From a virus (taxonomy: Duplodnaviria > Heunggongvirae > Uroviricota > Caudoviricetes), in IMG/VR virus record IMGVR_UViG_3300046523_000117: a stretch of DNA of 64,000 nt; one strand, 5' to 3'. Below the pieces are notes generated by a model. That model was given only the letters and a program-made list of their open reading frames with translations, was not told the DNA's origin and ran no database searches. Below are positions 33,990 to 54,182 of this stretch, piece by piece (positions within the stretch are counted from its first letter, which is position 1; every line of letters begins with the position of its first letter). Both the position numbers and the translations under genes were made by a program.

Positions 33990-34301
33990 TTAGTGGAAAT
34001 ATATGCTCATATTAGGATGGGTTTCATCCACGAACTGAATGTAGCCGGGTGGGAGGATTACACCACGGGATGGCGTTTGGATACAGGACTTGCGTTCACC
34101 AACCACATAATACGGGCCAATGAATGCATAAGGCGGCTGTGAATCGCGCAATCGACCTAATTTGTGGGTACTGATATTTCCCTTCTTTTCATCGATCTTT
34201 CGAACCACATGAATTTGGGTGACCGCCGACCGACCACTGAGGGATGAATAAACAACGATGTCACCAACTTTATACGGTTGGTCGATTTTATCAATTATAG
34301 G
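33990..34301 (-). CDS. hypothetical protein, paralog of the next gene (~103 aa)
   Basis: ORF trimmed to MPIIDKID; shares M..PI.D......VG...Y and V(I/V)LP(D/P)GY with 34291..34566. Confidence 0.45.
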   Translation of the reverse strand, partial: PIIDKIDQPYKVGDIVVYSSLSGRSAVTQIHVVRKIDEKKGNISTHKLGRLRDSQPPYAFIGPYYVVGERKSCIQTPSRGVILPPGYIQFVDETHPNMSIYFH

Positions 34302-34566
34302 CATAAAGTTCTTCGCGGGTGTTGAAGTAGCCATCAGGTAGGACAACAGCGGATGCTGGGAATTTGAGGCAAACTGTCTTGTCACCCCCACGGTAGAATG
34401 GTTCGCCTATCTCTTTCTGATAATATTCAATCGCAGAAATGGTATCGCTATTTCGATTAAGCTTGGCAACCTTGTAAACACCCATACCACCAGACGATGT
34501 GGCATACGCGATGAAATGACCGACCATAATTTCACGGTCGGCGTAATCTAGAATTGGTTCCATCAA
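34291..34566 (-). CDS. hypothetical protein, paralog of the previous gene (91 aa)
   Basis: MMEPILDYADREIMVGHFIAY ... VVLPDGY. Confidence 0.45.
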   Translation of the reverse strand: MMEPILDYADREIMVGHFIAYATSSGGMGVYKVAKLNRNSDTISAIEYYQKEIGEPFYRGGDKTVCLKFPASAVVLPDGYFNTREELYAYN

Positions 34567-34577
34567 ATTATTCCGAG

Positions 34578-34612
34578 CAATAAAAAAGGCGGCTAACGCC
34601 GCCCTTTTAGGG
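34578..34612. terminator. rho-independent terminator
   Basis: ATAAAAAAGGCGGCtaacGCCGCCCTTTTAG. Confidence 0.7.
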
Positions 34613-34620
34613 GGTTGTGA

Positions 34621-34956
34621 TTATTCTTGGGTTTGTGCGACCGGTGCCGGTGTCTGGATCACAGTCGGTGACGTGCTGATTTCGACCATTCGATCACATG
34701 CCAACGACCGGGCGACTTCTTCACAGTCGTATCGGTTTTGTTTGGTCTTCGGACCATTCAGATAGCATTGGTTGAACTGTTGGATCACCAATTGCTTCTG
34801 AATCAGGGATGAACAGTTATAGAACACCCGTGTAGAGTCTGTGCGATTTTCACTGTGATTGACTTCTTCTTTCGAAGCACAACCACCCAGAGTGACAAGG
34901 GCCAGAGCCAGTACAATCAATTTACCTTTCATGCGGAATTTCCTTTTGTTATCCAA
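34621..34956 (-). CDS. lipoprotein (111 aa)
   Basis: MKGKLIVLALALVTLGGCAS signal peptide plus lipobox. Confidence 0.6.
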   Translation of the reverse strand: MDNKRKFRMKGKLIVLALALVTLGGCASKEEVNHSENRTDSTRVFYNCSSLIQKQLVIQQFNQCYLNGPKTKQNRYDCEEVARSLACDRMVEISTSPTVIQTPAPVAQTQE

Positions 34957-35560
34957 TCGGATCAGTGAGAACTAGTTGACCGGTGGGGCGAATCATCCAG
35001 TTTGACCCGTGACAATCCACTTTCGCATCCGGTAACCCAGCCATCCAAATCACGATATCTGCTAGGTTGTTTGTATTGTAGTTACGGTTCCCGCGCATGT
35101 CAAACTGATTCCGCAAAAAATCTGCAATTTTCTTTCGTTTACCATTCAGGGTTTTAAACTGATTGATAAACCATTGATTTCTACAGAGTTTTACGACATT
35201 CGACATTCCGACACTATGAACGATTTCGCTTTCATAGAGCCGTTCCATACAGGCTATTGCTCGACCATCATCCACAAACATATTATAAATTTTTGGCATC
35301 AATGGATTTGAGTCCATATGCCGGGTGACATGCTCTGCGTACTGAATCCAAGGGTCAGACCCTTTCCACGACAGTTTGAACACCCGCTCAGAATCGATTT
35401 GCCCAATCACCGACGAGTAAAACCCGGTTCCGTGATATTTCCATCCAACCGGCATCAAGCGTTGAAGCTCTAGGGTTTCGTGGAAGACGCGGGGAGCGTG
35501 TTGCATTGCTCCCTGCAAATCACCAGCAATCAGACAATCAATTAGTTTTGCGACATCCAT
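34949..35560 (-). CDS. atypical protein-kinase-like fold protein (203 aa)
   Basis: HGTGFYSSV Gly-loop-like, VFKLS Lys, DCHGSNWMI (DxHxxN catalytic-loop-like), LVLTDPIG (DFG-position); paralog of 35542..36375. Confidence 0.45.
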   Translation of the reverse strand: MDVAKLIDCLIAGDLQGAMQHAPRVFHETLELQRLMPVGWKYHGTGFYSSVIGQIDSERVFKLSWKGSDPWIQYAEHVTRHMDSNPLMPKIYNMFVDDGRAIACMERLYESEIVHSVGMSNVVKLCRNQWFINQFKTLNGKRKKIADFLRNQFDMRGNRNYNTNNLADIVIWMAGLPDAKVDCHGSNWMIRPTGQLVLTDPIG

Positions 35561-36375
35561 GAAAACTTAGTGCCTTGCTCCAGTTGCGTGTAGCCATTCA
35601 AAATGTCACAGATTGGGTCAGTCAGGACCGGGAAGCCATCGCGATGCATGACGTTGCTTGAGCTGATATCGTCACAGCCACGTACAGAATTTCGGTGGTC
35701 TTCGTAAACCCTAGCAGCAACAATTGCATCAATCGGACTGTGCTTAATGAACTGCCCGAACGTAAATTCGGCATTTTCCATGTAGCGGTCCACGTCGAAG
35801 TCTTCGAAAAAGGATTCGTCGGCCAGATCACCGAGCGAACCATCCTCAAAGGACAGGCCGACGCCAAGATGCAGATGCTCTACCACAGCGATGTACAGAT
35901 GTCCACGTTGTTCAATCGATTTGATGTTAGGGATATACGGGTTCCCTTGGTGCTGCGTGCAAGTCTTCATCCAACCAAACCCACCATCTACAGGCGAATA
36001 AAAGTTGTCCCGGCAGTTGACTTTCAACACCCACTCAGGGCCGAGGCTAAACACCTCTGCGAAAGATCCATTGCCGATGAAAATAAAGCACTTAGCAAGC
36101 ACTTCGGAGATAAATTCGAGGTCATACCCACTATCAGGTACGCCATCTACCGGAGTAAACTCACTGCCGAGTTTATCCTTGGTCGCATACTTGCCGAAGA
36201 TTTGAATCAAATTCTTCGGCAAGTTACGGATATCATCTTGTACGGCCTTGACATCAGCAACTGCTTGATGTACTAGATCGTCGTAGGACGGACCAATTTT
36301 AACTACACCACCTGCAAAGGAAATGCAAAAACTATCTGCACACCCCATATCTGCAACCGCTGCAACTGCGCCCAT
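35542..36375 (-). CDS. atypical protein-kinase-like fold protein (277 aa)
   Basis: IGNGSFAEVF glycine loop, WVLKV lysine, VMHRDGFPVLTDPI catalytic/DFG-like segment. Confidence 0.5.
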   Translation of the reverse strand: MGAVAAVADMGCADSFCISFAGGVVKIGPSYDDLVHQAVADVKAVQDDIRNLPKNLIQIFGKYATKDKLGSEFTPVDGVPDSGYDLEFISEVLAKCFIFIGNGSFAEVFSLGPEWVLKVNCRDNFYSPVDGGFGWMKTCTQHQGNPYIPNIKSIEQRGHLYIAVVEHLHLGVGLSFEDGSLGDLADESFFEDFDVDRYMENAEFTFGQFIKHSPIDAIVAARVYEDHRNSVRGCDDISSSNVMHRDGFPVLTDPICDILNGYTQLEQGTKFSWMSQN

Positions 36376-36402
36376 TCCGTTTTAGCCCCAATGCCCTAGG
36401 TT

Positions 36403-36603
36403 TTATGTTGGTTGTTTTTTGTGCAGCTTGTAATCTGCTGGGCAGTGTTTGTTCCAGATCGAAGCGTCCAGATCCAAAATTCCCTGTTGACGACAAAGTG
36501 TCTCGAACGATGTTCTCCCCGCGTGGTACACCTTGCTGTCATCGCTATATTGATAGAACCAATCGTGCTTTGCAAGCAGTTTTTCGTAATCAGACAGTAA
36601 CAT
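36403..36603 (-). CDS. hypothetical protein (66 aa)
   Basis: minus-strand ORF. Confidence 0.45.
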   Translation of the reverse strand: MLLSDYEKLLAKHDWFYQYSDDSKVYHAGRTSFETLCRQQGILDLDASIWNKHCPADYKLHKKQPT

Positions 36604-37072
36604 TCAGGGTAAATTCCGCTTTTTCAAGTTCGAGCCAAGCTTTGTGGTAGGTCTGGACGCGGGCGATGTCGCTAGGACGCACGCCCTTGAGCCGGGTGAT
36701 GCACGAATTGTGCTGTAGGTCACCTTTTTTGATCCGAATAATATCTACCCGACCTGCGGTAATCAGTCGCTGAATGAAATCCTCATAGGGTTCATCCTTA
36801 CGACGGGTCAACAGATCCAGACCAGATTCGAATTCTTCCAGAACGTCATATGCTCTGGCTTGGACCAACAAATGTTGAACCATTTCTGGGTGGTCTTCCT
36901 TGACATCATGACAAACCGCCAGTGCAAGGCTTACCGGGTTGGTAACGCCAAGTTTCCGTGCATTTTCCATGACGGTAATACAGTGCAAAATGTATGCCTT
37001 ACCGCCCTTGTCTACATCAAATTGATGTGCCATCGCAGCTACTGCAAAAACACCACCCAGAAGAGTTCCCAT
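36590..37072 (-). CDS. HD-domain hydrolase, RelA/SpoT-type (small alarmone hydrolase-like)
   Basis: YILHCITVMENARKLG...SLALAVCHDVKEDH matches the Rel/SpoT HD signature (HP...AALLHDVxED); 160 aa single domain. Confidence 0.6.
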   Translation of the reverse strand: MGTLLGGVFAVAAMAHQFDVDKGGKAYILHCITVMENARKLGVTNPVSLALAVCHDVKEDHPEMVQHLLVQARAYDVLEEFESGLDLLTRRKDEPYEDFIQRLITAGRVDIIRIKKGDLQHNSCITRLKGVRPSDIARVQTYHKAWLELEKAEFTLNVTV

Positions 37073-37434
37073 TACTTGACTTCCTGTGCCTTGGATACGT
37101 TAGGGAACCAGCTAAAGAACTGGACGCGCACGCCATTGGTCTTGAATGTGTACTTGGTGTCTTTCTTGATTTCACCGTACATGTCAGCGGAATTGAATTT
37201 CCAATTCAGCCACGAATCACGGTTTTCCAGAACACCTTTGTCGGTATAGATCAGGTACTTGCAATTACCCTGAGACGAACAACGCTCGCCCTTGTCGGTT
37301 ACGGTCGCGGTTACTTCGTCGCTGGTCGCCAGATACAGAACAGCTTTGGCACCACCGAACAACAGAAAGATCGCCAGAACTGTACCGTAGAGCAACAGTT
37401 CAACCGCCGAATTACCTTTTTGACTTTTCATCAA
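37072..37434 (-). CDS. membrane-anchored / periplasmic hypothetical protein (120 aa)
   Basis: N-terminal TM AVELLLYGTVLAIFLLFGGA. Confidence 0.5.
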   Translation of the reverse strand: MMKSQKGNSAVELLLYGTVLAIFLLFGGAKAVLYLATSDEVTATVTDKGERCSSQGNCKYLIYTDKGVLENRDSWLNWKFNSADMYGEIKKDTKYTFKTNGVRVQFFSWFPNVSKAQEVK

Positions 37435-37439
37435 ATCCC

Positions 37440-37739
37440 TTACTTCGTGTAGTGGCTGGCAATCGCCAACAGATTATTAAGCTCTTTGGACAGTTCAACC
37501 TTGTCCAGCTTTGGTTCGTTTTCAACCGTACTGATCAGAGCCATGATGTTTTTGCGTTCTTCGAACGAAATCGGCAGGTTATCGGCAACCCAGCTAAGGA
37601 TTGTAATAGCCGAAACAGTTGCGGTTTCATAGAAGGTCTTGCGGGCCATCAGATCCCGAACATCACCGATATTCAGTTTGATCTTTTGGGAATCGGCGGT
37701 AGCCGAGTATTGAACCAGTGTGTCGTTAAGTTTGCTCAT
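37440..37739 (-). CDS. hypothetical protein (99 aa)
   Basis: minus-strand ORF. Confidence 0.5.
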   Translation of the reverse strand: MSKLNDTLVQYSATADSQKIKLNIGDVRDLMARKTFYETATVSAITILSWVADNLPISFEERKNIMALISTVENEPKLDKVELSKELNNLLAIASHYTK

Positions 37740-37791
37740 GAGCCTATTCTATATCAGTTTTGAGTTGTTTTAAACAGAATCGAAAAATATT

Positions 37792-38094
37792 TTATCGATA
37801 GCTGGATTCGTAGGTGCCGGTAATGCCGATTTCGATTGTGAAATCATCACCCATATTGAATTCGTTGAATTCCCATCCACTTAGATACAGCAAATCCCGA
37901 CCGTTGGCTTCGAAGAAATCCCAACATGCGGGAGAAACCTTTACATCAAATTCCAGCTTTAGGGATTTGCGATTCAACCCAGTAACCGGGGCATTCACCA
38001 TCGCCTTTGCAATGGCTTCCCGAGCTTCGTTAAGGTGAATCTGTACACGCTGCGAAAAGATCGTAACCGGCGTTGGTACTGAAACCTGATTCAT
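37792..38094 (-). CDS. hypothetical protein (100 aa)
   Basis: minus-strand ORF. Confidence 0.45.
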   Translation of the reverse strand: MNQVSVPTPVTIFSQRVQIHLNEAREAIAKAMVNAPVTGLNRKSLKLEFDVKVSPACWDFFEANGRDLLYLSGWEFNEFNMGDDFTIEIGITGTYESSYR

Positions 38095-38629
38095 TCTGCA
38101 TCAATTCCTGTGCGTAGATTTTATAAAGGGCTTCCCGATCTTGGGGCTCCCAGAGATTGAACGTGGTGATTCTCAAGCCCTTGGCCAGATTGAACGCTGT
38201 AGCCGTACCACCCTTGACCGTTCGGCCTCTTGGTGGGGCACACGCGACAACCAAATCAGCCTTTGACTTTAGGTCGTCACCCAATACCTGAAACACGTTG
38301 CGGGTATGGGCGTTCTGTGCGAATTCATCAATTTCATCAAATCTTGGATGTATTCTTCTGGCGATGTCCTGAGCTTCAAACCACAAGTCCCCAAATTCGC
38401 TGGGGACTTTGAAACAATCAGCATTGGATCGACCATTGAAATTTGGTTCAGGTAGATAAATCGTTTTCCGATCCGATTCTACAAACCCCAATTCCCAAGC
38501 GCTATCCGCGCCTCTAGCACCACCAGACCGCAGATGCCAGCCTTTATTAGCGAGGACTGTAGCGAGGTTCTGACAAATCTTAAATTGGATTGCATCAATT
38601 TCCCTCGAACCGATTCCAGTAACGATCAA
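38030..38629 (-). CDS. DprA/Smf-like (SLOG superfamily) Rossmann-fold protein (199 aa)
   Basis: IVTGIGSREID ... LRSGGARGADSAWELG ... VVACAPPRGRTVKGGT parallels DprA GxGxxG / SGGARGID motifs; standalone domain. Confidence 0.5.
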   Translation of the reverse strand: MIVTGIGSREIDAIQFKICQNLATVLANKGWHLRSGGARGADSAWELGFVESDRKTIYLPEPNFNGRSNADCFKVPSEFGDLWFEAQDIARRIHPRFDEIDEFAQNAHTRNVFQVLGDDLKSKADLVVACAPPRGRTVKGGTATAFNLAKGLRITTFNLWEPQDREALYKIYAQELMQNESGFSTNAGYDLFAACTDSP

Positions 38630-38898
38630 AGCTGTTCCATCAAAAGACGAATCAGTTCATCACCGTCTACGTTGGTGCCTTTCATGTCAGTCAAGAAGCC
38701 TTTCAGGGCTACCGGGTTGACAGGTTGAACCAGAACATAATCGGTTTGGTCATCGAACTTGGTGTAATGCGACTTCATGTTTTCAGTGAAGCGGCGTTTG
38801 ACAATCGATGTGCTGTGTCCAACTTGACCGTATTGATAACCGTCTTGGGCACGAACAGAAGCATAACCTTTTAGAAACAAATTTTCTATCTTTTTCAT
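38626..38898 (-). CDS. hypothetical protein (90 aa)
   Basis: minus-strand ORF. Confidence 0.45.
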   Translation of the reverse strand: MKKIENLFLKGYASVRAQDGYQYGQVGHSTSIVKRRFTENMKSHYTKFDDQTDYVLVQPVNPVALKGFLTDMKGTNVDGDELIRLLMEQL

Positions 38899-38926
38899 AT
38901 TAAAAACCCGGCTTTCGCCGGGTTCC
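38898..38926. terminator. rho-independent terminator
   Basis: TTAAAAACCCGGCtttcGCCGGGTTCCTTATT. Confidence 0.55.
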
Positions 38927-38941
38927 TTATTCAGTTTTGAA

Positions 38942-40291
38942 TTATTGAGCTACTTTCATATCCAGCAGAAGGTCTTTTGCCGCTTTGGCACCTACCACGT
39001 TCATGAAATTGGCGGTTTCGGTTTGACGACCGTTATCACCAGCACCACCCATAACCAGTTGTGGAACCTTGGCTTTGGAGTATGCATCAGCCCAAACTTT
39101 TTCGATTTCGACACGGGCTTGCAGTTTCTGAGTCAAAGCACCGTCAGCGAGGATCACGGCTTTCTTGGCGTAGGCTTCCGCTTCGGCCTTTTCTTTCGTG
39201 GTCTTTGCATCAATTTGAGCTTGTTCAAACTTGATTTGAGAAGTTGCTTTCTCAATCGAAGCCTTTTCTTGCTCACGGGAAGCGTTGGTCAGAGCCAGTT
39301 GTTTTTCAGTTTCGGCGTTGGTGGTACGAATTACCTGATCTTTCATGGTCAGTTGACGTTGTGTTTCAACTTCCATTTCACCGTTTGCAGTAGCAAGTTT
39401 CTTTTGTTCGTCGGCAGTGATACGGCCTTGGCGAGCATAAGACAAATCAGCTTGCGATTGTTGAACTTTCTTCATGCGCTCTTTGAACTGAGGCGATGGA
39501 TCGATGTTCAAAATGTTCGCATCGGCAACAGTTACACCCAGTTTCGAGAACTGACGCTCCAGACGAATCGGCAGACCAGATTTTGCATCCAATACCTTTT
39601 CGGTAATTACAACGGTAGTTGTATCGGCACCGAATGAACCTTGTTCTTTACCATTCTGGGCAACAGCGCCTTGAGTGGCATCACGGGTATTCTTGACTTG
39701 CTTTTCAATTCGCTTGACGACATACGCACCGTCTGCAATTTGATCTTGGAAGCTCTGGCGGAATTCTGTTGCACCACCGTTGTAGTAATCGTCAGCCGAC
39801 ATCAACTGTGCAGTCGATTGCAGCGTGGATTTCATGACCGGCATGATCGATTGAAGAACAAAATTGTCGGGGCTGCGATAAGTACGAGCCAGTTGCAGGA
39901 ACTGTTCACCGTCCGGCAGTGCAACACGAACGTTCGCATCAACAGTAGCAACTACACCACCGAGGAAGGTCACCGGGAATGCTGGAATCAGAGAAGAACC
40001 CAATCCATCAAAATCACCCTTGGGTAATGTTGCGGTATCCAGTACAGATTGAACCGACATCTGGCGAGGCCACGGGGTTACCGTACCAAAACCGATGTAG
40101 GTGTAACCGGTGGTGCTTACAACCTTTTCACCTTGGGTTGGGAACTTGGTCATAACCTGAGTGATGTAACCGGCGCTGTTGTAATAGAACATGCTGCTAA
40201 ACATGAGCCAAACGAACAGAATTGCCGCTACAACGACCGCAGCCGTCCAACCGAGTTTCTTGTTTACTTCAAATCCGAGAATATTGCTCAC
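38942..40291 (-). CDS. SPFH/band-7 (stomatin/flotillin-like) membrane protein with long C-terminal coiled coil (449 aa)
   Basis: N-terminal TM (WTAAVVVAAILFVWLMF), SPFH-like core, Ala/Glu/Lys/Gln-rich flotillin-like tail. Confidence 0.55.
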   Translation of the reverse strand: MSNILGFEVNKKLGWTAAVVVAAILFVWLMFSSMFYYNSAGYITQVMTKFPTQGEKVVSTTGYTYIGFGTVTPWPRQMSVQSVLDTATLPKGDFDGLGSSLIPAFPVTFLGGVVATVDANVRVALPDGEQFLQLARTYRSPDNFVLQSIMPVMKSTLQSTAQLMSADDYYNGGATEFRQSFQDQIADGAYVVKRIEKQVKNTRDATQGAVAQNGKEQGSFGADTTTVVITEKVLDAKSGLPIRLERQFSKLGVTVADANILNIDPSPQFKERMKKVQQSQADLSYARQGRITADEQKKLATANGEMEVETQRQLTMKDQVIRTTNAETEKQLALTNASREQEKASIEKATSQIKFEQAQIDAKTTKEKAEAEAYAKKAVILADGALTQKLQARVEIEKVWADAYSKAKVPQLVMGGAGDNGRQTETANFMNVVGAKAAKDLLLDMKVAQ

Positions 40292-40440
40292 TAATCTTTC
40301 CTTTGTTTTGTTTGTGGTCCTAATGACCGGGTTACATGTACATCATACTACGTTTTGAATCTGTTTCAAACACTTTCGAAACTTTATTTTTTGTCGCGTT
40401 CTGTTTCGATGTCGCCATTCTATAGATTCAAAACACATTG

Positions 40441-41247
40441 TCAATGGATTCTGTAAAAACTTTTTTCGAGAAATCCGGTGTCGTCTTGATCTGGGTAGCC
40501 ATACGGGTTGCAGATAACGTTGGTGTCGCCAATCATGTAGTCATGAACGATATGGACGTGACCGTGGCACCAGAAATTGATGTTAGGTCGATCCAGAATG
40601 AATTCGCTCAAATCGCTGTGATAGCCGAAGTTCATGTAATATTCGTTGGCAAATTTCGGGTCGAGGCTTTTAGCACTTGGTGGGTGATGGGTCACGACCA
40701 CACAAGGTTCCATCGAATTGCCGACTTCTTCTGCGATGTATTCCAGATCCTTTTTATGCTCGGCTTGCCAGTGACGCGGCTTGAACTTCCCATAATGATC
40801 GAATTTTTCATCGTGGTAGTCGATTACCCGGAAATCGTTCATCCCGGTACTCAGGGTGAATTCCACCACCGGGTTACCGCGATCCATATTGGTCCAGAGC
40901 GTAGCCCCAACGAATCTAATTCCATCAATTACCACAGAGTCACGAATCAGGAAGTGGATGTTATCCAAGCCTTCTGGGTTCATTTTCTGGAAATTGAACA
41001 GGTTGGTAATCGGTTTGATTACGCTGCCGTAGTATTCGTGGTTCCCCGGAACGTACACAACCGCTTTGAAGCGGTTTCCGTATTCGGTCAACAGGGGTGC
41101 GACGTTCTCAGCACGTTTCAGGGTGTGAAAATCCCCGGCGATTACCAGAACACGTTCTTTGTCACCGTTGATATGCGGCAACGACGGCATTGCAAATGAG
41201 GCGTACCACTCAAGGTGGCAATCGCTAATAAGTCTGAATTCCATCAA
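40441..41247 (-). CDS. calcineurin-like metallophosphoesterase (class-III phosphodiesterase-like)
   Basis: GDFH ... GNHEYYG ... H ... GHVHIVHD motif set. Confidence 0.65.
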   Translation of the reverse strand: MMEFRLISDCHLEWYASFAMPSLPHINGDKERVLVIAGDFHTLKRAENVAPLLTEYGNRFKAVVYVPGNHEYYGSVIKPITNLFNFQKMNPEGLDNIHFLIRDSVVIDGIRFVGATLWTNMDRGNPVVEFTLSTGMNDFRVIDYHDEKFDHYGKFKPRHWQAEHKKDLEYIAEEVGNSMEPCVVVTHHPPSAKSLDPKFANEYYMNFGYHSDLSEFILDRPNINFWCHGHVHIVHDYMIGDTNVICNPYGYPDQDDTGFLEKSFYRIH

Positions 41248-41741: not shown

Positions 41742-43259
41742 TTACGGAATGCGAATTTCGCTAAACGCCCACTCCATAATGTGGTCACCGTCTTCCCACA
41801 CCGTAACCATTTGGTCAACGATTGTGTGATTGGTTTCTTGCAGCTCGATACGATCCGAGAAGAATTTCCCGTTCGAATCTTTGAACGTGGTCACACGACC
41901 TTTCTTGGACCGTTTAACCGAGTCGGTATCCGGGTCTTTGTACAGGTCACGCCACACACCATCTACACACAGTGCAGACGCTTTCATGGCGAATTTGAGC
42001 CAATCACGGTCGCAGTGTTGCAGAAGGGCACCACCCATACCGAAAACGATGTTATCGGCAGAGTAACCAAGTGCGAACATGTTCGCATAGATTTGACGAA
42101 TGCTGGATTCGTTGATGCCGTCGCCTTGCAGAACACGGATGCAATCTGGCAGGACTTTGTAACCTTTGCTGTTGATCGTGTAACCAAAACCTTCCATCAA
42201 AATGCCGATGATTTCTACCGGGATTTCGGTTGCTACACCGGAATCTGGGCGCAGTACAAACGTACCACCAGAATTCATGATTCGAGTTTTGATCGGATCA
42301 GTTGCACACCACTTGGCGAAGCGGCGAATGCTATAAGTATCACCCACACAGGCTACGATGCCTTTGTGTTTTTCCAGCAGTTGGATCGCCATTTCCAGAG
42401 CGTTGGAATCGTCGCGGGTTTCAGCGTCAGAGTTTGCACAAACAACACTGTGTTCCGTTGCACGAACCGAGAAGGCGGGCATTTCGCCTTTCTTCACGCC
42501 GTAGAACTGTTTCAATTCGATGATAGCTTGAATGGTATCAGTACCCATCCAACCGGCCATCAAGTGAGCAGCACCGCCGATGCGAGCAGATTCGACACTG
42601 GACACACCACGGAAACCGAAGTCGTGCAGCTTGAATTGACTACCAACGCCTTCATCAACCGATTCGCGGAAAGCTTGTTCAACCACTTGACGGATGCTGT
42701 ACGAAACAGAAGCCACGGTGATTGGATACCACGCTTGCAGGAACAGCGGTTCGAAGTACGAAACCAGCCATGCAAAGTCCGGGTGGGTGTTTTCAACAGT
42801 CCACAGAACGTTGCCGGTCGGAACAATCGTGCCTTCTTTCAGGCAGCGAATGCGCAGTGGCAGACGGCCTTTGAATTTTGTCACGATTGCTTCCCAACCT
42901 TTACGGTTGAAAACGTTCGGACCCATGTGCAGTTCTACCAGTTCTTCGGCTTCGTCCACATCCTGCATGGTCAGACGACCAGAGAAGTGACGTTTCAGAA
43001 TGGCTTGCAGGCCGACAAATACGGTGTAGGTGTAACCTTCGTTGACACCGCGTACTTCGTGCTGGTCAGATCCACGCGATTCCCCGTAGGAATACAGGTA
43101 CTGTGCCCCGGCTGGGATCATTTCCCAGTGGTCGCCTTTGTACGAATCGGATTTCAGGATCAGGTTGTTTGGGTTGAAATCAAGATTAATATTGAGACTG
43201 GTCATTCTTTCGAACTCCTCGAAAATTGAATTAGTTGTTTTGTTGCGCAGCACGACCAA
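41742..43259 (-). CDS. nadV: nicotinamide phosphoribosyltransferase (NAMPT/NadV)
   Basis: 505 aa; conserved NAMPT blocks (DSYKGDHW, GYTYTVFVGLQAILKRHF, LPLRIRCLKEGT, FGFRGVSSVESA, GTDT). Confidence 0.85.
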   Translation of the reverse strand: MVVLRNKTTNSIFEEFERMTSLNINLDFNPNNLILKSDSYKGDHWEMIPAGAQYLYSYGESRGSDQHEVRGVNEGYTYTVFVGLQAILKRHFSGRLTMQDVDEAEELVELHMGPNVFNRKGWEAIVTKFKGRLPLRIRCLKEGTIVPTGNVLWTVENTHPDFAWLVSYFEPLFLQAWYPITVASVSYSIRQVVEQAFRESVDEGVGSQFKLHDFGFRGVSSVESARIGGAAHLMAGWMGTDTIQAIIELKQFYGVKKGEMPAFSVRATEHSVVCANSDAETRDDSNALEMAIQLLEKHKGIVACVGDTYSIRRFAKWCATDPIKTRIMNSGGTFVLRPDSGVATEIPVEIIGILMEGFGYTINSKGYKVLPDCIRVLQGDGINESSIRQIYANMFALGYSADNIVFGMGGALLQHCDRDWLKFAMKASALCVDGVWRDLYKDPDTDSVKRSKKGRVTTFKDSNGKFFSDRIELQETNHTIVDQMVTVWEDGDHIMEWAFSEIRIP

Positions 43260-44316
43260 TCATGGTCATGATGATGTTGTGATGGTCTTCGAAAAAGTCA
43301 GCCGCGTGTTCCGGGGCAGCGATTTCAGAGATTGGAACCCAGAACGCTTTATCAGCGTCATCGGAACCGTAAACCCGTGGCAAGCTACCGTCATGATTTG
43401 TATCAATCTTGAAAGTAAATGCGAAGGTCATGAGCCGACCGCGAAGGGAACGTTTCGGATTATCGAACCGCTTTTCGTCAATGATCGACTTGCGCAGCAC
43501 CTTTTCAGGCACATGCAGTTTTGTTTCTTCATCCAGTTCACGAATCGCACCGTCTTCAACCGTTTCATTGGTATTGACGAATCCACCGGGTAGAGCAAGT
43601 TTGCCCTTACCGGGAATGTTTTTACGACGAATCAACAGGATGTGGCTTTTGCACAGAACTACCGCGTCTGCGGTTACGTCGTTGATCGGGTATTTGGCCC
43701 GACGATGTGCGGGATACGCTTTGTGGAAATTGTATTCGGCCAGCAGTTCCCGGAACATATCAGAACTGATGAATTTTGTGTTGACATAATCCCAGACACC
43801 GGAAGGCATCATTGGGCCAGCGTCACCAAAATACCCTTCGAACATCAGTTCGCGGATTTTGGTTGCCGCCATTTCTTCGTCGCCGTGCATTTTAGCACCG
43901 GATTCGATGAAATCCCATGTTGGGAACAAATCGAGATAGAATGAACTATCATCTTTCTTGTGCCCAACGATTGCGATTTTCGGAGCTTTGATGCCGGAAA
44001 TGTAACGAGTCGAAAGACGCATTACCTCGGCAGCCCACAAATCGTTCGATGGCATGTCGTTGATGAAACTGATTCCAACGCCTTTGATACCAGCGTCGAT
44101 GGTTGCCAATTCAACCATAGCCGAACGATCACGATTACCGAATGGGTTACGTTCATCACGCGGGGCGTTTGCACTCCCCAGAATCACGACCACTCGATCA
44201 GCAATCGAATCTGCCAGTTTGATGTTGTCCAAATGGGCGTTGTGCAGTGGAGCCATTCGCCCGATGAAAATTGCTAGGTCGTACTTTTTAACGTTGGTCA
44301 CTACTGATCCCCTCAA
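43231..44316 (-). CDS. natV: bifunctional NMN adenylyltransferase / Nudix (ADP-ribose pyrophosphatase) NatV-like
   Basis: The N-terminal cytidylyltransferase fold carries an HxGH-like motif (GRMAPLHNAH). The C-terminal Nudix box is GGFVNTNETVEDGAIRELDEETKL. The gene overlaps nadV. Confidence 0.8.
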   Translation of the reverse strand: MRGSVVTNVKKYDLAIFIGRMAPLHNAHLDNIKLADSIADRVVVILGSANAPRDERNPFGNRDRSAMVELATIDAGIKGVGISFINDMPSNDLWAAEVMRLSTRYISGIKAPKIAIVGHKKDDSSFYLDLFPTWDFIESGAKMHGDEEMAATKIRELMFEGYFGDAGPMMPSGVWDYVNTKFISSDMFRELLAEYNFHKAYPAHRRAKYPINDVTADAVVLCKSHILLIRRKNIPGKGKLALPGGFVNTNETVEDGAIRELDEETKLHVPEKVLRKSIIDEKRFDNPKRSLRGRLMTFAFTFKIDTNHDGSLPRVYGSDDADKAFWVPISEIAAPEHAADFFEDHHNIIMTMIGRAAQQNN

Positions 44317-44904: not shown

Positions 44905-45948
44905 TTATGCGAAATCGAGGGTGAGCCATACCGGTTTGATTACCGATGCCGCGTGGGCACCGACTCGCTTACCAAGGACGTTCCATTCTTCGGTTTCTTG
45001 GGCCTTGTACCCATGATCTTTTTCGAAGTCTTCCAGAGCGTCACGGGTGAAATCCCCTTGCAGCCTACCGAACGACTTCTGGTCGTATACAGATTTTGAT
45101 ACAACCGCGTTAACCCGGTTCTCGCTCATGTAAGAGCAGACCTTATCCAGCAGAGCCTGTTGCTCGTCTGACAGGTTCACCGCCGACTTGATTTTTACTT
45201 CCTTGACCTTTTCACCGTACAGATGGTTCTTTTGTTTCAGAATCACCCGTTCTTCGCCCATATAGAAGTCTTCTTCATACCCGCAGATCACAAAACCTTC
45301 CGCGTAGTCAACCGGGGCTTTCTCACGATGTTCTGTTTCAAGACCAAATGCTTGTGGCACATGGGTATAGAACAACGGATCAATTTTGATCAGTTCTTCC
45401 AGCGTACCGATTTTGATGATCGGAGCATGACGCATACGGTCTTCGAACGACAAGCGAGCGATGAAGTTTGCATCAAATAGCAGGTCAACCAAATCCATGA
45501 ACGGAACGTAACGGCTGATACCGGTATCGAACGTCAGTTTCAGGTCGAATGCCATGAATTCGTTATCAGGGTGGTAGTTCACACCACCTTGAACTTTCTT
45601 GGCGGATTGAGCGCTAATCCCGTTATACGAACCACCGAAAATTTCACCGAACAGATTGATTTGAACCAGACCGGGGAACTCGCTCTTGACCAGACCAAAC
45701 AGAGCTTGGACAACTGGTTTGTATCGGGAGAAGAACCGGGAATGACCATAGAAGGTTTCAAGTTCATCGATCAAATCGTTACGGCTGGCAACCCGAATAG
45801 TAGTTCCGTCAGCAATCCACGAAAAGTTGGCACCGTGGATTTTCTCCACCGCCACCATCTGAGCATCCCCAACATGCATAGCGCATTTGTCGAGGAATCG
45901 TTGTTGGTAAGAGTTTTCGATGGAACTGTATTTAACAAATTCGCTCAC
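44905..45948 (-). CDS. rnlB: RNA ligase 2 (Rnl2, T4 gp24.1-like)
   Basis: The GTG start is preceded by AAAGGA. (V)SEFVKYSSIENSY...EKIHGANFSW aligns with the T4 Rnl2 MFKKYSSLENHY...EKIHGTNFSL KxHG ligase motif I. Confidence 0.8.
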   Translation of the reverse strand: MSEFVKYSSIENSYQQRFLDKCAMHVGDAQMVAVEKIHGANFSWIADGTTIRVASRNDLIDELETFYGHSRFFSRYKPVVQALFGLVKSEFPGLVQINLFGEIFGGSYNGISAQSAKKVQGGVNYHPDNEFMAFDLKLTFDTGISRYVPFMDLVDLLFDANFIARLSFEDRMRHAPIIKIGTLEELIKIDPLFYTHVPQAFGLETEHREKAPVDYAEGFVICGYEEDFYMGEERVILKQKNHLYGEKVKEVKIKSAVNLSDEQQALLDKVCSYMSENRVNAVVSKSVYDQKSFGRLQGDFTRDALEDFEKDHGYKAQETEEWNVLGKRVGAHAASVIKPVWLTLDFA

Positions 45949-45958
45949 AATAGATCCT

Positions 45959-46291
45959 TTATTTCTTTGGACGACCAGAATTAAGCCGGTCGTATAACAA
46001 TGTTTGTTGCAACTGGGTGATAGGCACATCCCCGTTTGCATGACCAAGTATTTTGTCCACGATGATATCTCGAAGACGTTTCATCGATGATTTGTTGAAC
46101 TTCCCTTCATCCGTATCAATACTGATGTTCACATATCCAATGTTGTTGGAATGCTTAAAAAATATCGTCAGGTAATCGTGGATAATGTCAAAGATTGTTT
46201 CTGGTGTTTCTGCGTAATACCGCGTAATTGTTGACGTAGTAACAGTCGGAGCGACTGTCACCACTTCAAATCCAACAATTAGGGCTCTCAC
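45959..46291 (-). CDS. hypothetical protein (110 aa)
   Basis: minus-strand ORF. Confidence 0.45.
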   Translation of the reverse strand: MRALIVGFEVVTVAPTVTTSTITRYYAETPETIFDIIHDYLTIFFKHSNNIGYVNISIDTDEGKFNKSSMKRLRDIIVDKILGHANGDVPITQLQQTLLYDRLNSGRPKK

Positions 46292-46566
46292 TCGGCCAAT
46301 CCCATGAGCGCACCGGCAAGGATATTAAATTTGACTTGATCTAGCATCAGATTACATCCAGCGTTGTCTTGATTAGTCATAAAACTAACCCCTTCTTCAC
46401 TATCAGAGTTATCCTGTTCACCCACGATCATTACAAAGTCACATTTGCCGGTAAGAATCTCGCCGTACATTTCATCCAGAGCTTTTTTAATTTCTGGGGT
46501 AATCTTTTCTGATGGCTTGGCAGCCGACACCAATTGAAACACTTTCTTATCTGTCATACTTCGCAC
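46288..46566 (-). CDS. hypothetical protein (92 aa)
   Basis: minus-strand ORF. Confidence 0.45.
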   Translation of the reverse strand: MRSMTDKKVFQLVSAAKPSEKITPEIKKALDEMYGEILTGKCDFVMIVGEQDNSDSEEGVSFMTNQDNAGCNLMLDQVKFNILAGALMGLAE

Positions 46567-46575
46567 CGGTTTAGA

Positions 46576-47433
46576 TCAAAAATTACCCGGCGCAACTTGG
46601 TAGCAGCGAAGCCCCATGCTACGCCAAGTCCTCACAACTTGATCACGGTCATCAAACACACCTTTTACGTTGTAATACGGTGCGATGTAACGGTGATACA
46701 AATCGTGTTTTACAGCAGAATCTTTGATATGCGATCCTTCTGGACGCATACGCAATCCATCGTAAGGCAAATCATATCGCCACAACCAATCCATAGTTTC
46801 TTCGCGACAAACTTCATCACGACCAGAAACACCGATCAGTTTATTACCAGCCGCTTCCAGAATTTTCAGAACTTCGATTACATCCGAATGCGGTTTATCA
46901 TGTCCGACTTTCTTCCAATCGAATGGGCCACGAACTCCAGTCATATCGGCAACGGTGCCGTCGATATCGTAAAGGAATGCGTCAGCTTTCAATGGATCAT
47001 ATGCCGGTGCCATAATCGGGAATTGATCCCGATACATAGCGTACATTTGTTGCACCACACCCACAGGTACAACTTTGGTCTGATCATCGCGATTTGCATT
47101 GCGTTGGATCAAATCATCAAGCAGCAGATACGGTGCAACATGAACAATTTGAATCTCAGCACCGAAGCTAGACCCAAATTTGATCAAATGTTCGCGGGTA
47201 GTCGGATTGATATTCGTATCAGATACAAATACATTCAGGTCACTCAGCAGAGCATTTCGAATCAGTTGTTCGTGTTCGTAAGTCACATGCTTTTCATCAA
47301 CGCCGTTTCCGTACCAAGATCCGTAGAGCTTTTTACGCAACAGGTCGCGTTCAACCTGTACATACCCTTGCGACACAAATTTATGCGCAAGGGTGGACTT
47401 ACCGGAGCCGGGGACTCCGATAGTCAGAACCAT
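46576..47433 (-). CDS. pseT: polynucleotide 5'-kinase/3'-phosphatase (Pnk/PseT-like)
   Basis: MVLTIGVPGSGKST P-loop at the N-terminus as in T4 Pnk; DxDGT-type phosphatase half (LYDIDGTV); the track start was TTG, so it is trimmed to the ATG one nt after the rnlA stop. Confidence 0.8.
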   Translation of the reverse strand: MVLTIGVPGSGKSTLAHKFVSQGYVQVERDLLRKKLYGSWYGNGVDEKHVTYEHEQLIRNALLSDLNVFVSDTNINPTTREHLIKFGSSFGAEIQIVHVAPYLLLDDLIQRNANRDDQTKVVPVGVVQQMYAMYRDQFPIMAPAYDPLKADAFLYDIDGTVADMTGVRGPFDWKKVGHDKPHSDVIEVLKILEAAGNKLIGVSGRDEVCREETMDWLWRYDLPYDGLRMRPEGSHIKDSAVKHDLYHRYIAPYYNVKGVFDDRDQVVRTWRSMGLRCYQVAPGNF

Positions 47434-47434
47434 T

Positions 47435-48568
47435 TTAGTCAGACGATGTTCCTTCAAATTCTTTCAAGATATAATTGGAATAGTTCTTTTGCATGAACTC
47501 TTTGGCCTGTGTTTCCCAATCACGCCCAACAAATCGGGACATTTGGATGTTAAACACCCAATCGGAATATTCGGCCTTCGCAGCAATGGCGTAGTCTTTT
47601 TGAGACAGATCCTTGTTACGGTCATGAAATGATTCTACCACAGAACAGGTATGGTTATAAACAGAACTGATAGAAATTTCGTAAGCATTGATTTTGTCCA
47701 ATACCGCTTGGTCGTCCGAGAACAAAACCTTGAGGTCGTCAATCTGTTCCGAAAGAATCAGTTCGATCAACGCACGGGTGTTCTGTACGTTGTCCTTGTT
47801 ACGGTGCAACGCCAGATACCACGGGCATTTCATTTTGAAGTAAACCCCATTTTTGGTCAGGGCTACAACGCCTTCGGTGCCGGTCAGGTTGTTGATTGCG
47901 GTTGCCAGCAAGCCGGTGTACTGGAATTCTTCAACCCAGATATCATCAACCCCGGCCAGACCCAAATCATCAATCAGGTCTTGTCCGTAAACAGTTCCGG
48001 TATGATTGTCAATGATGCTCAGGCCAATCAGTTTTGGTTGTTGATAACCGACCACGATACGGTTCCACGGCGCACACCATTCAAGATTAGTCGTGAAGTC
48101 GCGGGATGCGAGGAACCGCAGATCCGCCAGCAAGGCTGGTTGGGTCTTGAGGAACGCCATTGCATCATTACATTGAACCGATCCGGTAGAACCTTTCGAT
48201 TTCAGACGCAATTCGCCGTTGGTATGCAGGTAGGTAGACATCAACGAACCGTCTTCCTTGACCATGCACATTGCCAAATCATCCATCGGCAATTCCATCG
48301 TGAATGGATTTTCACCCAGATTGAAGAATTTCTTCGGAGGACGGCAAACCAAATCGTCAAAGTTGCCTTTGCGATCTACCAGAAACATGGTGCCACGACA
48401 TTCCAGCGCACCGGGTTTGCAGAAATCCGAATAGCTTGCCAGACGGTAGTTAAAGATCCGGTACATACGTTCCGGGTCGTCCGCTGGGAAGTCTTTGAAG
48501 AAGAATGCATCACCGGTCAGGGTCAATTGCATCAATTGATCGTAAAGCTGGAATGGGTTGGTGGACAT
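47435..48568 (-). CDS. rnlA: RNA ligase 1 (RnlA, T4 gene 63-like)
   Basis: 377 aa; YRIFNYRLASYSDF ... LECRGTMF ... KKFFNLGENPFTM ... VKEDGSLMSTYL match T4 Rnl1 blocks including the KxDG nucleotidyl-transfer motif. Confidence 0.85.
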   Translation of the reverse strand: MSTNPFQLYDQLMQLTLTGDAFFFKDFPADDPERMYRIFNYRLASYSDFCKPGALECRGTMFLVDRKGNFDDLVCRPPKKFFNLGENPFTMELPMDDLAMCMVKEDGSLMSTYLHTNGELRLKSKGSTGSVQCNDAMAFLKTQPALLADLRFLASRDFTTNLEWCAPWNRIVVGYQQPKLIGLSIIDNHTGTVYGQDLIDDLGLAGVDDIWVEEFQYTGLLATAINNLTGTEGVVALTKNGVYFKMKCPWYLALHRNKDNVQNTRALIELILSEQIDDLKVLFSDDQAVLDKINAYEISISSVYNHTCSVVESFHDRNKDLSQKDYAIAAKAEYSDWVFNIQMSRFVGRDWETQAKEFMQKNYSNYILKEFEGTSSD

Positions 48569-53537: not shown

Positions 53538-54182
53538 TTACAGGTCAGTGATTTCCATTTGACCCATTGCAAGCTTGACGCAGTTCTGCATTTCGATGAC
53601 AGCCTTAGCGATGTCGTGTCGTGCATCGTGCATACGGAAACCCGGAATTGTTTTGTATTCCCGGTCGTCCTTGTACAGCGTGGTCGCGGTCAGATCCATC
53701 AAAGCCCCGGAAATGAACGAACGGATATCACGGGAGTTCCAGAAGGCACCCGGCAATTTCATTCCAACGGTCGCCATCGCATCATCCATAATCGGGATAT
53801 CGAAATCCTGACCACGGCAGAACCGATAGGTACGCTTCTCGCTGCCTTTGTTGATTCCACGTTCGGCCAGATATTCGATAATCTGTTTCGAACCTTCTTC
53901 GAGGCTCACATCTTTCGCAGACGGCATCAGCTCACGGCGAACAACGTCGTCCTGTTTCTTCCACCAATTCAAGGTATCTGGATCGATCTTACGTCCAGCA
54001 TCCTTCTGTTGCTTCACGCTGAATTTGATGTAAAGAGCATCGTTGACATATTCGTCAAACGTTTTTGTTTCGTTGAAGTCGAAAACCAGAAACGCCGCCG
54101 ATACGATTACACAACCTGCTTTGGTGCCCAAGGTTTCAATGTCGAAACCGTACAGTTTGCTATCGTTACCGACTGTAAGCAT
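53538..54182 (-). CDS. dexA: exonuclease A (DexA, DEDD 3'-5' exonuclease)
   Basis: YGFDIETLG exo motif I, ~214 aa as T4 DexA. Confidence 0.75.
   Translation of the reverse strand: MLTVGNDSKLYGFDIETLGTKAGCVIVSAAFLVFDFNETKTFDEYVNDALYIKFSVKQQKDAGRKIDPDTLNWWKKQDDVVRRELMPSAKDVSLEEGSKQIIEYLAERGINKGSEKRTYRFCRGQDFDIPIMDDAMATVGMKLPGAFWNSRDIRSFISGALMDLTATTLYKDDREYKTIPGFRMHDARHDIAKAVIEMQNCVKLAMGQMEITDL

Follow-up and report, generated by a model that had tools for sequence, protein, structure and literature searches.

A putative small alarmone hydrolase (SAH) gene of the Aph1/PbcSpo type was located at positions 36590–37072 on the minus strand of the analyzed window, a 64-kb stretch of a phage genome with a total size of ~175–185 kb. 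The original prediction of a stand-alone 160-aa protein at this place was confirmed: the domain occupies residues 3–152 and is accompanied by neither synthetase nor regulatory domains, while the stretch quoted in that prediction, YILHCITVMENARKLGVTNPVSLALAVCHDVKEDH, corresponds to residues 27–61 of the translated ORF. The gene is under purifying selection, with a dN/dS ratio of ~0.11 in comparison with a 79%-identical homolog (dN 0.127, dS 1.12), and the strength of this selection argues against an inactive remnant. Megablast of the region 34000–40500 against phage genomes produced no match; in nucleotide terms, the phage is novel.

The SAH gene is preceded by a co-oriented gene (37072–37434, minus strand) for a 120-aa protein with an N-terminal hydrophobic segment, which belongs to phrog_301 ('secreted protein'). 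The stop codon of this upstream gene overlaps the SAH start codon in the sequence TAATG, suggesting a translational coupling of the two, and a likely ribosome-binding site (AGGAAG, ~8 nt 5' of the ATG), read directly from the sequence, is present within the 3' end of the upstream gene (37078–37086, minus strand). Both genes would belong to a single transcription unit, although the upstream gene accompanies SAH only within its own clade and is not conserved outside of it. On the downstream side, a co-oriented ORF of 66 aa (36403–36603, minus strand) shares 14 nt with the 3' end of SAH; it was kept as a 63-aa ORF in two related metagenomic contigs (L003 and L004), was missing from Pseudomonas phage Milchi, and gave no family match. 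Since the promoter and terminator scan returned counts no higher than expected from shuffled sequences, no operon boundaries are claimed. No tRNA genes were found within the 64-kb window.

Further away, two gp0.7-like kinase paralogs are located downstream of SAH, beyond the 66-aa ORF, and a DprA-like gene (phrog_768, E = 2.5e-54) is located upstream, beyond three small ORFs. RNA ligase 1 and PNKP are encoded near the SAH gene, and genes for NAD+ salvage are present in the phage as well. The placement of SAH between a kinase pair and a DprA-like gene was thus described correctly in respect to the neighbors, but none of them is immediately adjacent to it. The further suggestion, that this placement strengthens a counter-defense function, proved weak, because the synteny is limited to the phage's own clade, i.e., Milchi and the two metagenomic contigs: it was not seen around the SAH homologs of PVP-SE1, Aeromonas T4-like phages, Atu_ph07 or Streptococcus phages. 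With the kinase and DprA-like genes conserved in this clade only, the neighborhood was rejected as general functional evidence.

[quoted passage not shown] SAH matched PHROG 990 'metal-dependent phosphohydrolase' (E = 1.4e-26) and, as a single sequence, the PDB entry 7SMG, which is Aph1 (E = 1.4e-13). A family profile made of 52 homologs, with Aph1 left out, matched 7SMG '(p)ppApp hydrolase' at full length with E = 1.3e-43 and 151.6 bits, while the values for SpoT/Rel (~4e-15 to 1e-13) and for Mesh1 and PaSAH (~1e-9 to 1e-7) were much poorer, so that Aph1 scored ~90 bits higher than any ppGpp hydrolase. All 23 PDB matches of this profile were RSH hydrolase domains, and in the profile alignment with Rel/SpoT the motifs YiLH-P/C, HDxxED and KxxDxxxN were in register with RelSeq and SpoT column by column, which bears out the original prediction of a RelA/SpoT-type HD small alarmone hydrolase. 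The (p)ppGpp-hydrolase HD signature claimed for it is present and aligned, except that the first His motif reads H-C and not H-P. Similarly, the proposed SAH/Mesh1 architecture is correct in respect to SAH but not to Mesh1, since the protein falls with the Aph1/PbcSpo subgroup by both sequence and fold. A probe consisting of the C-terminal 53 residues of Aph1 (Y90-E143) gave a BLASTP match to SAH residues 96–150 with 40% identity and E = 5e-8; homology to this part was used by Ahmad et al. (2023, PMC10083569) as the criterion separating the Aph-type from other HD hydrolases. Judging from the sequence comparisons, the protein is best assigned to the Aph1/PbcSpo-type group, and not to Mesh1 or SpoT.

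Homologs of SAH numbered 109 in a set of 5.8 billion proteins, and an exhaustive search returned 3,396 matching clusters (50% identity, E ≤ 1e-3); identity to anything outside its own clade was 47% at most. The Pfam model HD_4 (PF13328) did not match SAH even at E ≤ 10. It is present in many of the SAH homologs, and the Javan146 Aph passes it (27.7 bits vs. 27.2); the missing match reflects the limited sensitivity of the Pfam model, and the results on profile and fold carry more weight. In the NCBIfam scan SpoT models appeared only below threshold, and PADLOC returned nothing for SAH.

The AlphaFold2 model of SAH (pLDDT 95.5) consisted of eight long helices and one 4-residue helix at HDxxED. 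Its top Foldseek matches were the four chains of 7SMG (TM 0.78/0.88, the latter value being normalized to 7SMG; rmsd 2.4 Å), followed by other SAHs. The predicted fold is a compact one with eight helices, in which helices 0 and 9 of Rel and PaSAH are missing, and the length of 160 aa leaves no room for extra terminal helices.

The catalytic residues are fully preserved. The metal ligands H30, H55, D56 and D118 coincide with the motifs of RelSeq and SpoT in the alignment and were invariant in all 52 homologs and in 149–150 of the 150 representatives. The ED dyad E59/D60 and N122 are invariant as well and align with LHDVVED and ADRLHN of RelSeq. The signature of Aph1 includes six residues: D24, R96, D116, R119, K133 and Y134 (PMC10083569). 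Four of them are shared by SAH, where D24, R96, R119 and Y134 correspond to D21, R102, R127 and Y142. Three of these, D21, R127 and Y142, were invariant in 52 out of 52 homologs and occurred jointly in 142 of the 150 non-redundant representatives, while the positions of D21 and R127 are occupied by Arg and Thr in RelSeq and SpoT. The two remaining signature positions deviate: D116 is replaced by C124, a Cys found in 8 of the 150 representatives, and K133 by T141 at a position which is Lys or Arg in 136 of them. Moreover, the active-site motifs of SAH are flanked by three cysteines (C31, C54 and C124). A double mutation, D24R/R119A, makes Aph1 gain ppGpp hydrolysis (PMC10083569). The presence of D21 and R127, i.e., the adenine state of these positions, makes (p)ppApp, and possibly a tRNA 3'-pyrophosphate, much more likely substrates than (p)ppGpp, while the substrate range could be shifted by the C124 and T141 deviations.

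A close characterized relative, Aph1 (adenosine 3'-pyrophosphohydrolase 1), originates from a Bacteroides caccae prophage, forms a homotetramer and cleaves pApp, ppApp and pppApp, with ppGpp hydrolysis by the wild type being undetectable (Ahmad et al., 2023, PMC10083569). It is the best match to SAH by sequence and fold, has identical catalytic residues and is likewise a stand-alone compact HD domain (149 aa vs. 160 aa); in both proteins the catalytic Asn is followed by two inserted residues, and both lack the helix insert of Rel/SpoT. On the other hand, SAH is only ~31–33% identical to Aph1, its loops are longer, Aph1 D113 is replaced by H121 and the Pro following the first metal His by C31, and SAH comes from a large lytic T4-like phage without an adjoining MuF-Apk2 toxin or IapK/Tis1 immunity gene. 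In contrast, Mesh1, PaSAH, CgRelH and the hydrolase domains of the long Rel/SpoT proteins share with SAH the superfamily fold, the metal ligands and the ED dyad but are distant from it (E from 4e-15 for SpoT/Rel to 4e-7 for PaSAH; TM 0.5–0.69 with rmsd mostly 4–8 Å); they have at least nine helices, including extra N- or C-terminal ones, have the base-gating positions occupied by Arg and Thr, and hydrolyze (p)ppGpp.

A second relevant relative is gp220 of Salmonella phage PVP-SE1, which is 35% identical to SAH over the whole domain (E = 7e-23). The SAH of PVP-SE1, classified as PbcSpo, neutralized all five of the toxSAS tested: CapRel, PhRel2, FaRel2, PhRel and FaRel (Jimmy et al., 2020, PMC7229694). 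Since gp220 is the only SAH-like place in the PVP-SE1 genome, it is presumably the construct used in that work, and its full-length identity to our protein lends indirect support to a placement of the latter in PbcSpo. Both are stand-alone SAHs of large lytic myoviruses with the same D/R/Y triad, although gp220 belongs to the Vequintavirinae and not to a T4-like lineage, has another gene neighborhood, and keeps Asp at position 124, with Lys at position 141. Another PbcSpo member, ATfaRel from Cellulomonas marina, is dual-specific, degrading ppGpp and ppApp. It also removes the 3'-pyrophosphate from tRNA (Kurata et al., 2021). The PVP-SE1 SAH and ATfaRel are the best functional analogs for an orphan phage SAH.

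From these comparisons, a metal-dependent 3'-pyrophosphohydrolase of the Aph1/PbcSpo type, encoded by an orphan accessory gene and reversing the products of toxSAS, is the reading which we consider fairly probable. As a compact all-helical HD-domain member of the RelA/SpoT-homolog superfamily, the enzyme would depend on Mn2+ or Mg2+, a metal requirement assumed from its homologs. By homology, the metal would be bound by H30, H55, D56 and D118, with the E59/D60 dyad activating water, N122 contacting the ribose and Y142 the pyrophosphate, while D21 and R127 would form a base pocket admitting adenine and keeping guanine out. Removal of the 3'-pyrophosphate would convert pppApp, ppApp and pApp into ATP, ADP and AMP, respectively, plus PPi; a second possible target would be the 3'-pyrophosphorylated A76 of tRNA. 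Expressed during infection by a T4-like lytic phage of ~175–185 kb, SAH would undo the output of toxic host synthetases making (p)ppApp (FaRel or Tas1/Apk type) and might also reverse the action of those pyrophosphorylating tRNA (CapRel, FaRel2 or PhRel type). As a result, ATP depletion or translational arrest, which would abort the infection, would be averted. SAH most likely acts by hydrolyzing (p)ppApp, and possibly 3'-pyrophosphorylated tRNA, blunting a toxSAS-type defense. The counter-defense role itself is a published hypothesis backed by heterologous toxin-neutralization assays on homologs, and none of the papers examined describes a toxSAS system being overcome by a phage SAH in the course of a real infection.

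Two alternative substrate assignments were considered unlikely, each to the same degree. According to the first, SAH would be mainly a (p)ppGpp hydrolase, lowering host ppGpp so that transcription and translation are not throttled by the stringent response during infection. In favor of this, SAH shares homology with the hydrolase domains of SpoT/Rel and retains every catalytic residue, several homologs are annotated as 'guanosine-3',5'-bis(diphosphate) 3'-pyrophosphohydrolase', and ATfaRel lowers ppGpp besides ppApp. Among the purified Aph1 homologs, however, all 12 hydrolyzed ppApp, and a modest ppGpp activity was detected in only two of them (Ahmad et al., 2023, PMC10083569), the remaining 10 being ppApp-only and thus similar to wild-type Aph1. 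Furthermore, the guanine-gating pair D21/R127 is in its adenine state, nearly invariant in the family and different from the Arg/Thr of Rel/SpoT, and the ~90-bit preference of the family profile for Aph1 points in the same direction. According to the second, the clade enzyme, retuned through T141, C124 and the three Cys, would act mainly on the CCA end of tRNA carrying a 3'-pyrophosphate instead of on free (p)ppApp. If true, SAH would represent a third arm of a phage tRNA-repair toolkit together with RNA ligase 1 and PNKP, its purpose being to overcome translation-targeting toxSAS defense of the CapRel, FaRel2 or PhRel type.

An action on some other phosphorylated metabolite, either as a 2'/3'-phosphatase of NADPH or PAPS, like the metazoan Mesh1, or on a 3'-phosphorylated signaling nucleotide of a defense system, seems very unlikely. 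The RSH hydrolase fold is indeed versatile, with Mesh1 reported as an NADPH phosphatase and crystallized with PAPS (9CHY), and both the deviations at C124 and T141 with the three Cys beside the active-site motifs and the NAD+ salvage genes of the phage would fit such a function. However, the Mesh1-type proteins are distant (E ~1e-9 to 1e-7; TM ~0.66 with rmsd 4.7–5.0 Å), the Aph-specific D/R/Y triad of SAH is intact, and the use of such substrates is known for no homolog of the Aph1/PbcSpo subgroup.

Somewhat less credit still was given to a self-immunity function, in which SAH would protect the phage from its own (p)ppApp synthetase toxin, as Aph1 does for MuF-Apk2 in temperate phages. In the latter, the Aph1 immunity proteins are interchangeable, 'universal' neutralizers of (p)ppApp synthetase toxins (Bartoli et al.; PMC12226406). 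The Aph1 proteins of such modules in Streptococcus pneumoniae, Mannheimia and Pasteurella prophages are homologous to SAH with ~29–32% identity, the Streptococcus and Pasteurellaceae members being placed directly 3' of the MuF-synthetase toxin and a small immunity gene; the homologs from Streptococcus prophages have the documented apk2-iapK-aph1 layout, and the SAH and synthetase searches each returned 35 Streptococcus phage records. These modules, however, are operons beside the portal gene of temperate phages of 35–45 kb, while SAH has no such partners. Neither a RelA_SpoT nor a MuF domain was detected by Pfam among the ORFs of at least 176 aa in the window, which covers 64 kb of the ~175–185-kb genome, and PHROGs revealed no synthetase among its unassigned ORFs of 161–234 aa. 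An Apk2-type probe, the Javan146 MuF-SAS, covering one synthetase family, produced only noise in tblastn and phmmer against the window and the syntenic loci (best E = 0.065), and no synthetase or MuF gene was found within 8 kb of the SAH homolog in the two metagenomic contigs. Among 50,697 phage records the same probe matched small temperate phages only and no large lytic phage, and Milchi, a relative with the same synteny and a complete genome, was likewise absent from the matches. The SAH is therefore an orphan, with no cognate synthetase toxin detected in the 64-kb window or in the complete Milchi genome, and most Aph homologs are likewise without linkage to MuF toxins (Ahmad et al., 2023, PMC10083569). 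After these searches, self-immunity was rejected as unlikely, and the absence of a linked synthetase or MuF gene is the reason why the SAH gene is not filed as a member of an apk2-iapK-aph1 immunity module.

Finally, the view that SAH has nothing to do with alarmones, being either an inactive remnant or a generic HD phosphohydrolase (dNTPase or nucleotidase), for which speak the lack of a direct Pfam match and the label 'metal-dependent phosphohydrolase' of many homologs, is largely refuted and has a negligible probability, given that all significant PDB profile matches and the fold matches are RSH hydrolases, that the RSH-specific ED dyad and N122 are invariant, and that the low dN/dS indicates strong purifying selection.

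Taken as an Aph1/PbcSpo-type hydrolase directed against toxSAS products, SAH is a credible, though unremarkable, accessory gene of the phage, probably serving counter-defense. Phage SAHs are a proposed counter-measure to toxSAS defense and (p)ppApp toxins, and the gene described here adds a divergent orphan member from an uncultured T4-like phage lineage, whose cultured relative, Pseudomonas phage Milchi, has the ortholog CDS0072 and makes a genetic test of the counter-defense hypothesis possible. The gene confirms the existing knowledge more than extending it, apart from the C124 and T141 replacements, which make it a natural variant useful for mapping the recognition of (p)ppApp versus (p)ppGpp versus tRNA 3'-pyrophosphate.

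The gene is the 160-aa minus-strand ORF 36590..37072 of the ORF listing, and the peptide quoted in the original prediction corresponds to its residues 27-61. Its ATG overlaps the stop codon of the upstream co-oriented gene as TAATG, and a Shine-Dalgarno sequence, AGGAAG, is located 8 nt upstream of the start. Against a homologue of 79% identity, carried by a 183-kb metagenomic phage contig, dN was 0.127 and dS 1.12; with a dN/dS of ~0.11 the gene is therefore functional and subject to purifying selection. The ORFs listed antisense to it, 36860..37249 and 36994..37452, are most plausibly by-products. The overlapping upstream gene (37072-37434, minus strand) encodes a phrog_301 'secreted protein' of 120 aa whose N-terminus is hydrophobic, and a 66-aa ORF without family match (36403-36603, minus strand) overlaps the hydrolase gene by 14 nt at its other end. 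Both small genes are kept in L003 and L004, two metagenomic phage contigs syntenic with the window at this locus, but not in Pseudomonas phage Milchi.

The assignment to the RelA/SpoT-type HD-domain small alarmone hydrolases (SAH) was upheld: the motifs YiLH(P/C), lHDvvED and KxxDlxxN match RelSeq and SpoT in every column, and the profile misalignment of HD-motif residues with Rel/SpoT, named in advance as evidence against the assignment, was checked for and did not appear. The protein matched PHROG 990 'metal-dependent phosphohydrolase' (E = 1.4e-26) and, below threshold, NCBIfam SpoT (E = 1e-4); the Pfam HD_4 model gave no match to the query. Homologues numbered 109 in a collection of 5.8 billion proteins, and an exhaustive search of 1.84 billion representatives produced 3,396 clusters at E <= 1e-3 and 302 at E <= 1e-10, a similarity which, judged from the sequences, is far above chance. 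In the PDB, the single sequence matched over its full length the 149-aa '(p)ppApp hydrolase' 7SMG (E = 1.4e-13), i.e., Aph1 of a Bacteroides caccae prophage. When a family profile of 52 homologues, from which Aph1 had purposely been left out, was run against the PDB, 23 out of 23 matches were hydrolase domains of RelA/SpoT homologues (RSH): Aph1 (E = 1.3e-43, 151.6 bits), Acinetobacter baumannii SpoT (E = 3.9e-15), Mycobacterium tuberculosis Rel (E = 7e-14), RelSeq (E = 1.2e-13), human Mesh1 (E = 6e-9) and PaSAH (E = 4e-7) among them. The AlphaFold2 model built from the same alignment was of high confidence (mean pLDDT 95.5, pTM 0.90) and all helical, and Foldseek ranked the four chains of 7SMG first in the PDB (TM 0.78 query-normalised and 0.88 target-normalised, rmsd 2.4 Å), followed by CgRelH, Mesh1, PaSAH, SpoT and Rel at TM 0.5-0.69. 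Membership in the RSH small alarmone hydrolases is very probable.

The Aph1 family has been delimited by homology to a C-terminal stretch of 53 residues that lacks the HD motif, and characterized by a six-residue signature consisting of D24, R96, D116, R119, K133 and Y134 (Ahmad et al., 2023, PMC10083569). The Aph1 C-terminal probe aligned with the window protein over residues 96-150 at 40% identity (E = 5e-8); D24, R96, R119 and Y134 correspond to D21, R102, R127 and Y142, and D116 and K133 are replaced by C124 and T141, respectively. By its C-terminal homology, its fold and the D21/R127 pair the protein therefore fits the Aph1 family, and of the six signature residues it keeps four. In the reference alignment, five Aph-type proteins (the query, those of Milchi and PVP-SE1 (gp220), the Javan146 Aph and Aph1) all carry Asp at position 21 and Arg at position 127; RelSeq and SpoT have Arg and Thr there, respectively. 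Common to the aligned Aph-type proteins are also two extra residues inserted behind the catalytic Asn and the lack of the Rel/SpoT helix insert. Of 150 non-redundant representatives, 142 have the D/R/Y triad and 149-150 keep the metal ligands, the ED dyad and the Asn. At position 124 the Cys of the query is a minority state (8/150, vs 100/150 with Asp), and at position 141, occupied by Lys/Arg in 136/150, its Thr falls outside the seven commonest residues. Among the closer homologues, residues 121 and 124 vary together, as H/C vs D/D. Three cysteines of the query clade adjoin active-site motifs: C31 after the metal ligand His30, C54 ahead of the HD motif, and C124. Of the 150 representatives, about 44 are longer than 180 aa and have N-terminal extensions; in two long ones, P0112 (441 aa) and P0113 (319 aa), the query matched in 2-4 separate stretches, which suggests tandem-duplicated or fused Aph-type domains.

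All 12 purified Aph1 homologues hydrolyzed ppApp and two of them had modest activity with ppGpp, and Aph1 itself gained ppGpp hydrolysis only as the D24R/R119A double mutant (PMC10083569). The specificity residues of the window protein are in the adenine state, and it probably prefers adenosine-3'-pyrophosphate. A (p)ppGpp hydrolase that dampens the stringent response, with the two weakly ppGpp-active homologues on its side and D21 and R127 against it, is unlikely, and an action on another phosphorylated metabolite, in the manner of the more distantly matching Mesh1, is considerably less probable still.

In Streptococcus phage Javan146 (locus L007 1722-3899), a 517-aa protein and a 68-aa ORF precede the Aph-type hydrolase. 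The 517-aa protein, annotated as 'capsid and scaffold protein', has a MuF domain at residues 206-295, and its C-terminal domain matches a solved small alarmone synthetase (8VX3, E = 4.9e-12). This is the layout of the published apk2-iapK-aph1 module (PMC12226406). The Javan146 synthetase domain, representing one synthetase family, was used as a toxin probe. It gave 128 matches in the phage collection, all in small temperate phages (84 of Ralstonia, 35 of Streptococcus, and those of Pasteurellaceae); no large lytic phage, Milchi included, was matched, and many of the 84 Ralstonia records carry the domain unannotated. Against the window and the syntenic loci the probe gave only noise (best E = 0.065), and no Pfam RelA_SpoT domain was found in the window ORFs of at least 176 aa. 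With no synthetase detected by either approach within the 64 kb, the window SAH is therefore an orphan, like that of Salmonella phage PVP-SE1. Self-immunity to a phage-borne synthetase, as the Javan146 layout exemplifies, is accordingly a slender prospect. The protein is a conserved, selected and compact Aph1/PbcSpo-type HD-domain enzyme with an intact metal site and ED dyad, without a detectable partner toxin; that it is a generic HD hydrolase or an inactive remnant is hardly credible.

The window, from a T4-like phage, is a region of replication and accessory genes, with genes for family-B DNA polymerase, gp44 clamp loader, UvsX, DnaB-type helicase, primase and topoisomerase II, and with a nucleotide/RNA metabolism set of MazG-like pyrophosphatase, RNA ligase 1, polynucleotide kinase-phosphatase (PNKP), RNA ligase 2, NMNAT-Nudix and NAMPT. 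At the nucleotide level no deposited phage matched, and no tRNA genes are present in the 64-kb window. About 95 small ORFs crowd positions 1-34000, most of them below 150 aa and most on the minus strand, a packing typical of early/accessory regions of large phages; few of those scanned had family matches. The nearest isolate by SAH protein is Milchi (175 kb; 44% identity, E = 6e-46). The neighborhood is ordered as metallophosphoesterase, SPFH protein, DprA-like protein, SAH and two gp0.7-like kinases, all following features being on the minus strand. The 449-aa SPFH/Band_7 protein (38942-40291; Pfam Band_7 E = 2.4e-11, phrog_11908 E = 1.2e-64) has a hydrophobic N-terminal segment and is kept in Milchi and L003/L004. 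The DprA-like protein (38030-38629; phrog_768, E = 2.5e-54) gave weak partial PADLOC matches, confined to residues 6-57, to PsyrA (E = 4.9e-6) and ShosA (E = 6e-3), DprA-like components of defense toxin-antitoxin systems. The T7 gp0.7-like kinase paralogues of 277 and 203 aa (34949-36375; phrog_15752, E = 2.5e-6 and 7.2e-12), without a match in the Pfam scan, lie in tandem with a 19-nt overlap, and the pair is kept in L003/L004 and Milchi. The gene order is the same in Milchi and identical in the 183-kb and a 130-kb contig, but is not kept in PVP-SE1, an Aeromonas T4-like phage, Agrobacterium phage Atu_ph07 or Javan146. The kinase/DprA placement, originally cited in support of counter-defense, is therefore a lineage feature and adds no independent functional evidence.

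Some 10 kb from the SAH lies a T4-style RNA repair set (44905-48568) identified with Pfam: RNA ligase 1 (47435-48568), PNKP (46576-47457) and RNA ligase 2 (44905-46047). In T4, the Rnl1 and PNKP pair mends tRNA cut by host anticodon nucleases. The genes for NAMPT (41742-43259) and bifunctional NMNAT-Nudix (43231-44316), overlapping by 29 nt and kept in Milchi and L003/L004, form an NAD+ salvage pair resembling phage NAD+-reconstitution genes proposed to act against NAD+-depleting defense. Both sets can be counted among recognized or proposed counter-defense gene types, a reading which is partly general knowledge. It is also discussed in PMC12846349. The MazG-like nucleotide pyrophosphatase (54182-54763; phrog_1992, E = 2.5e-46), whose gene lies between that of the primase and an ORF on the plus strand that looks spurious, gives this phage a second candidate for modifying nucleotide pools or signals.

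The stand-alone PbcSpo-subfamily SAH of PVP-SE1 neutralizes the toxic small alarmone synthetases (toxSASs) CapRel, PhRel2, FaRel2, PhRel and FaRel, as do the SSU5 PaSpo SAH and Cellulomonas marina ATfaRel, and incoming phages were proposed to bypass alarmone-based defense through such hydrolases (Jimmy et al., 2020, PMC7229694). The PVP-SE1 genome has one SAH-like locus, gp220, which is presumably the construct assayed and is 35% identical to the window protein across the whole domain (E = 7e-23). Toxins of the (p)ppApp synthetase type are neutralized interchangeably by Aph1 proteins from prophages of Streptococcus, Mannheimia and Pasteurella (Bartoli et al., PMC12226406), and ATfaRel and Mesh1 remove the 3'-pyrophosphate set by toxSASs on the tRNA CCA end (Kurata et al., 2021). 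The literature searched contained no demonstration of a phage SAH countering a toxSAS system during infection. The window SAH would hydrolyze the 3'-pyrophosphate of pApp, ppApp and pppApp and might also act on that of tRNA A76; its retuning toward tRNA 3'-pyrophosphate repair, alongside the neighboring Rnl1/PNKP kit, is doubtful. For a counter-defense role as such the chances appear even, and the combined reading of an RSH-type SAH with adenosine-3'-pyrophosphate preference and a counter-defense function is, on balance, favored.

Phage SAHs of the Aph1/PbcSpo subgroup have been catalogued and shown to neutralize toxSASs since 2020, and the Aph1 structure and specificity rules have been available since 2023. 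The clade of the window SAH is a single 50%-identity cluster, its next relative being 47% identical, and by its sequence the protein is a divergent new member of this subgroup. Unsurprising to a specialist and worth an annotation line, it brings two unexplained signature departures (C124 and T141) and cysteines adjoining active-site motifs, which give studies of specificity a useful natural variant to work with. In an infected cell it would undo what host toxSAS systems or (p)ppApp toxins produce, and such a reversal would preserve ATP and translation for the phage.
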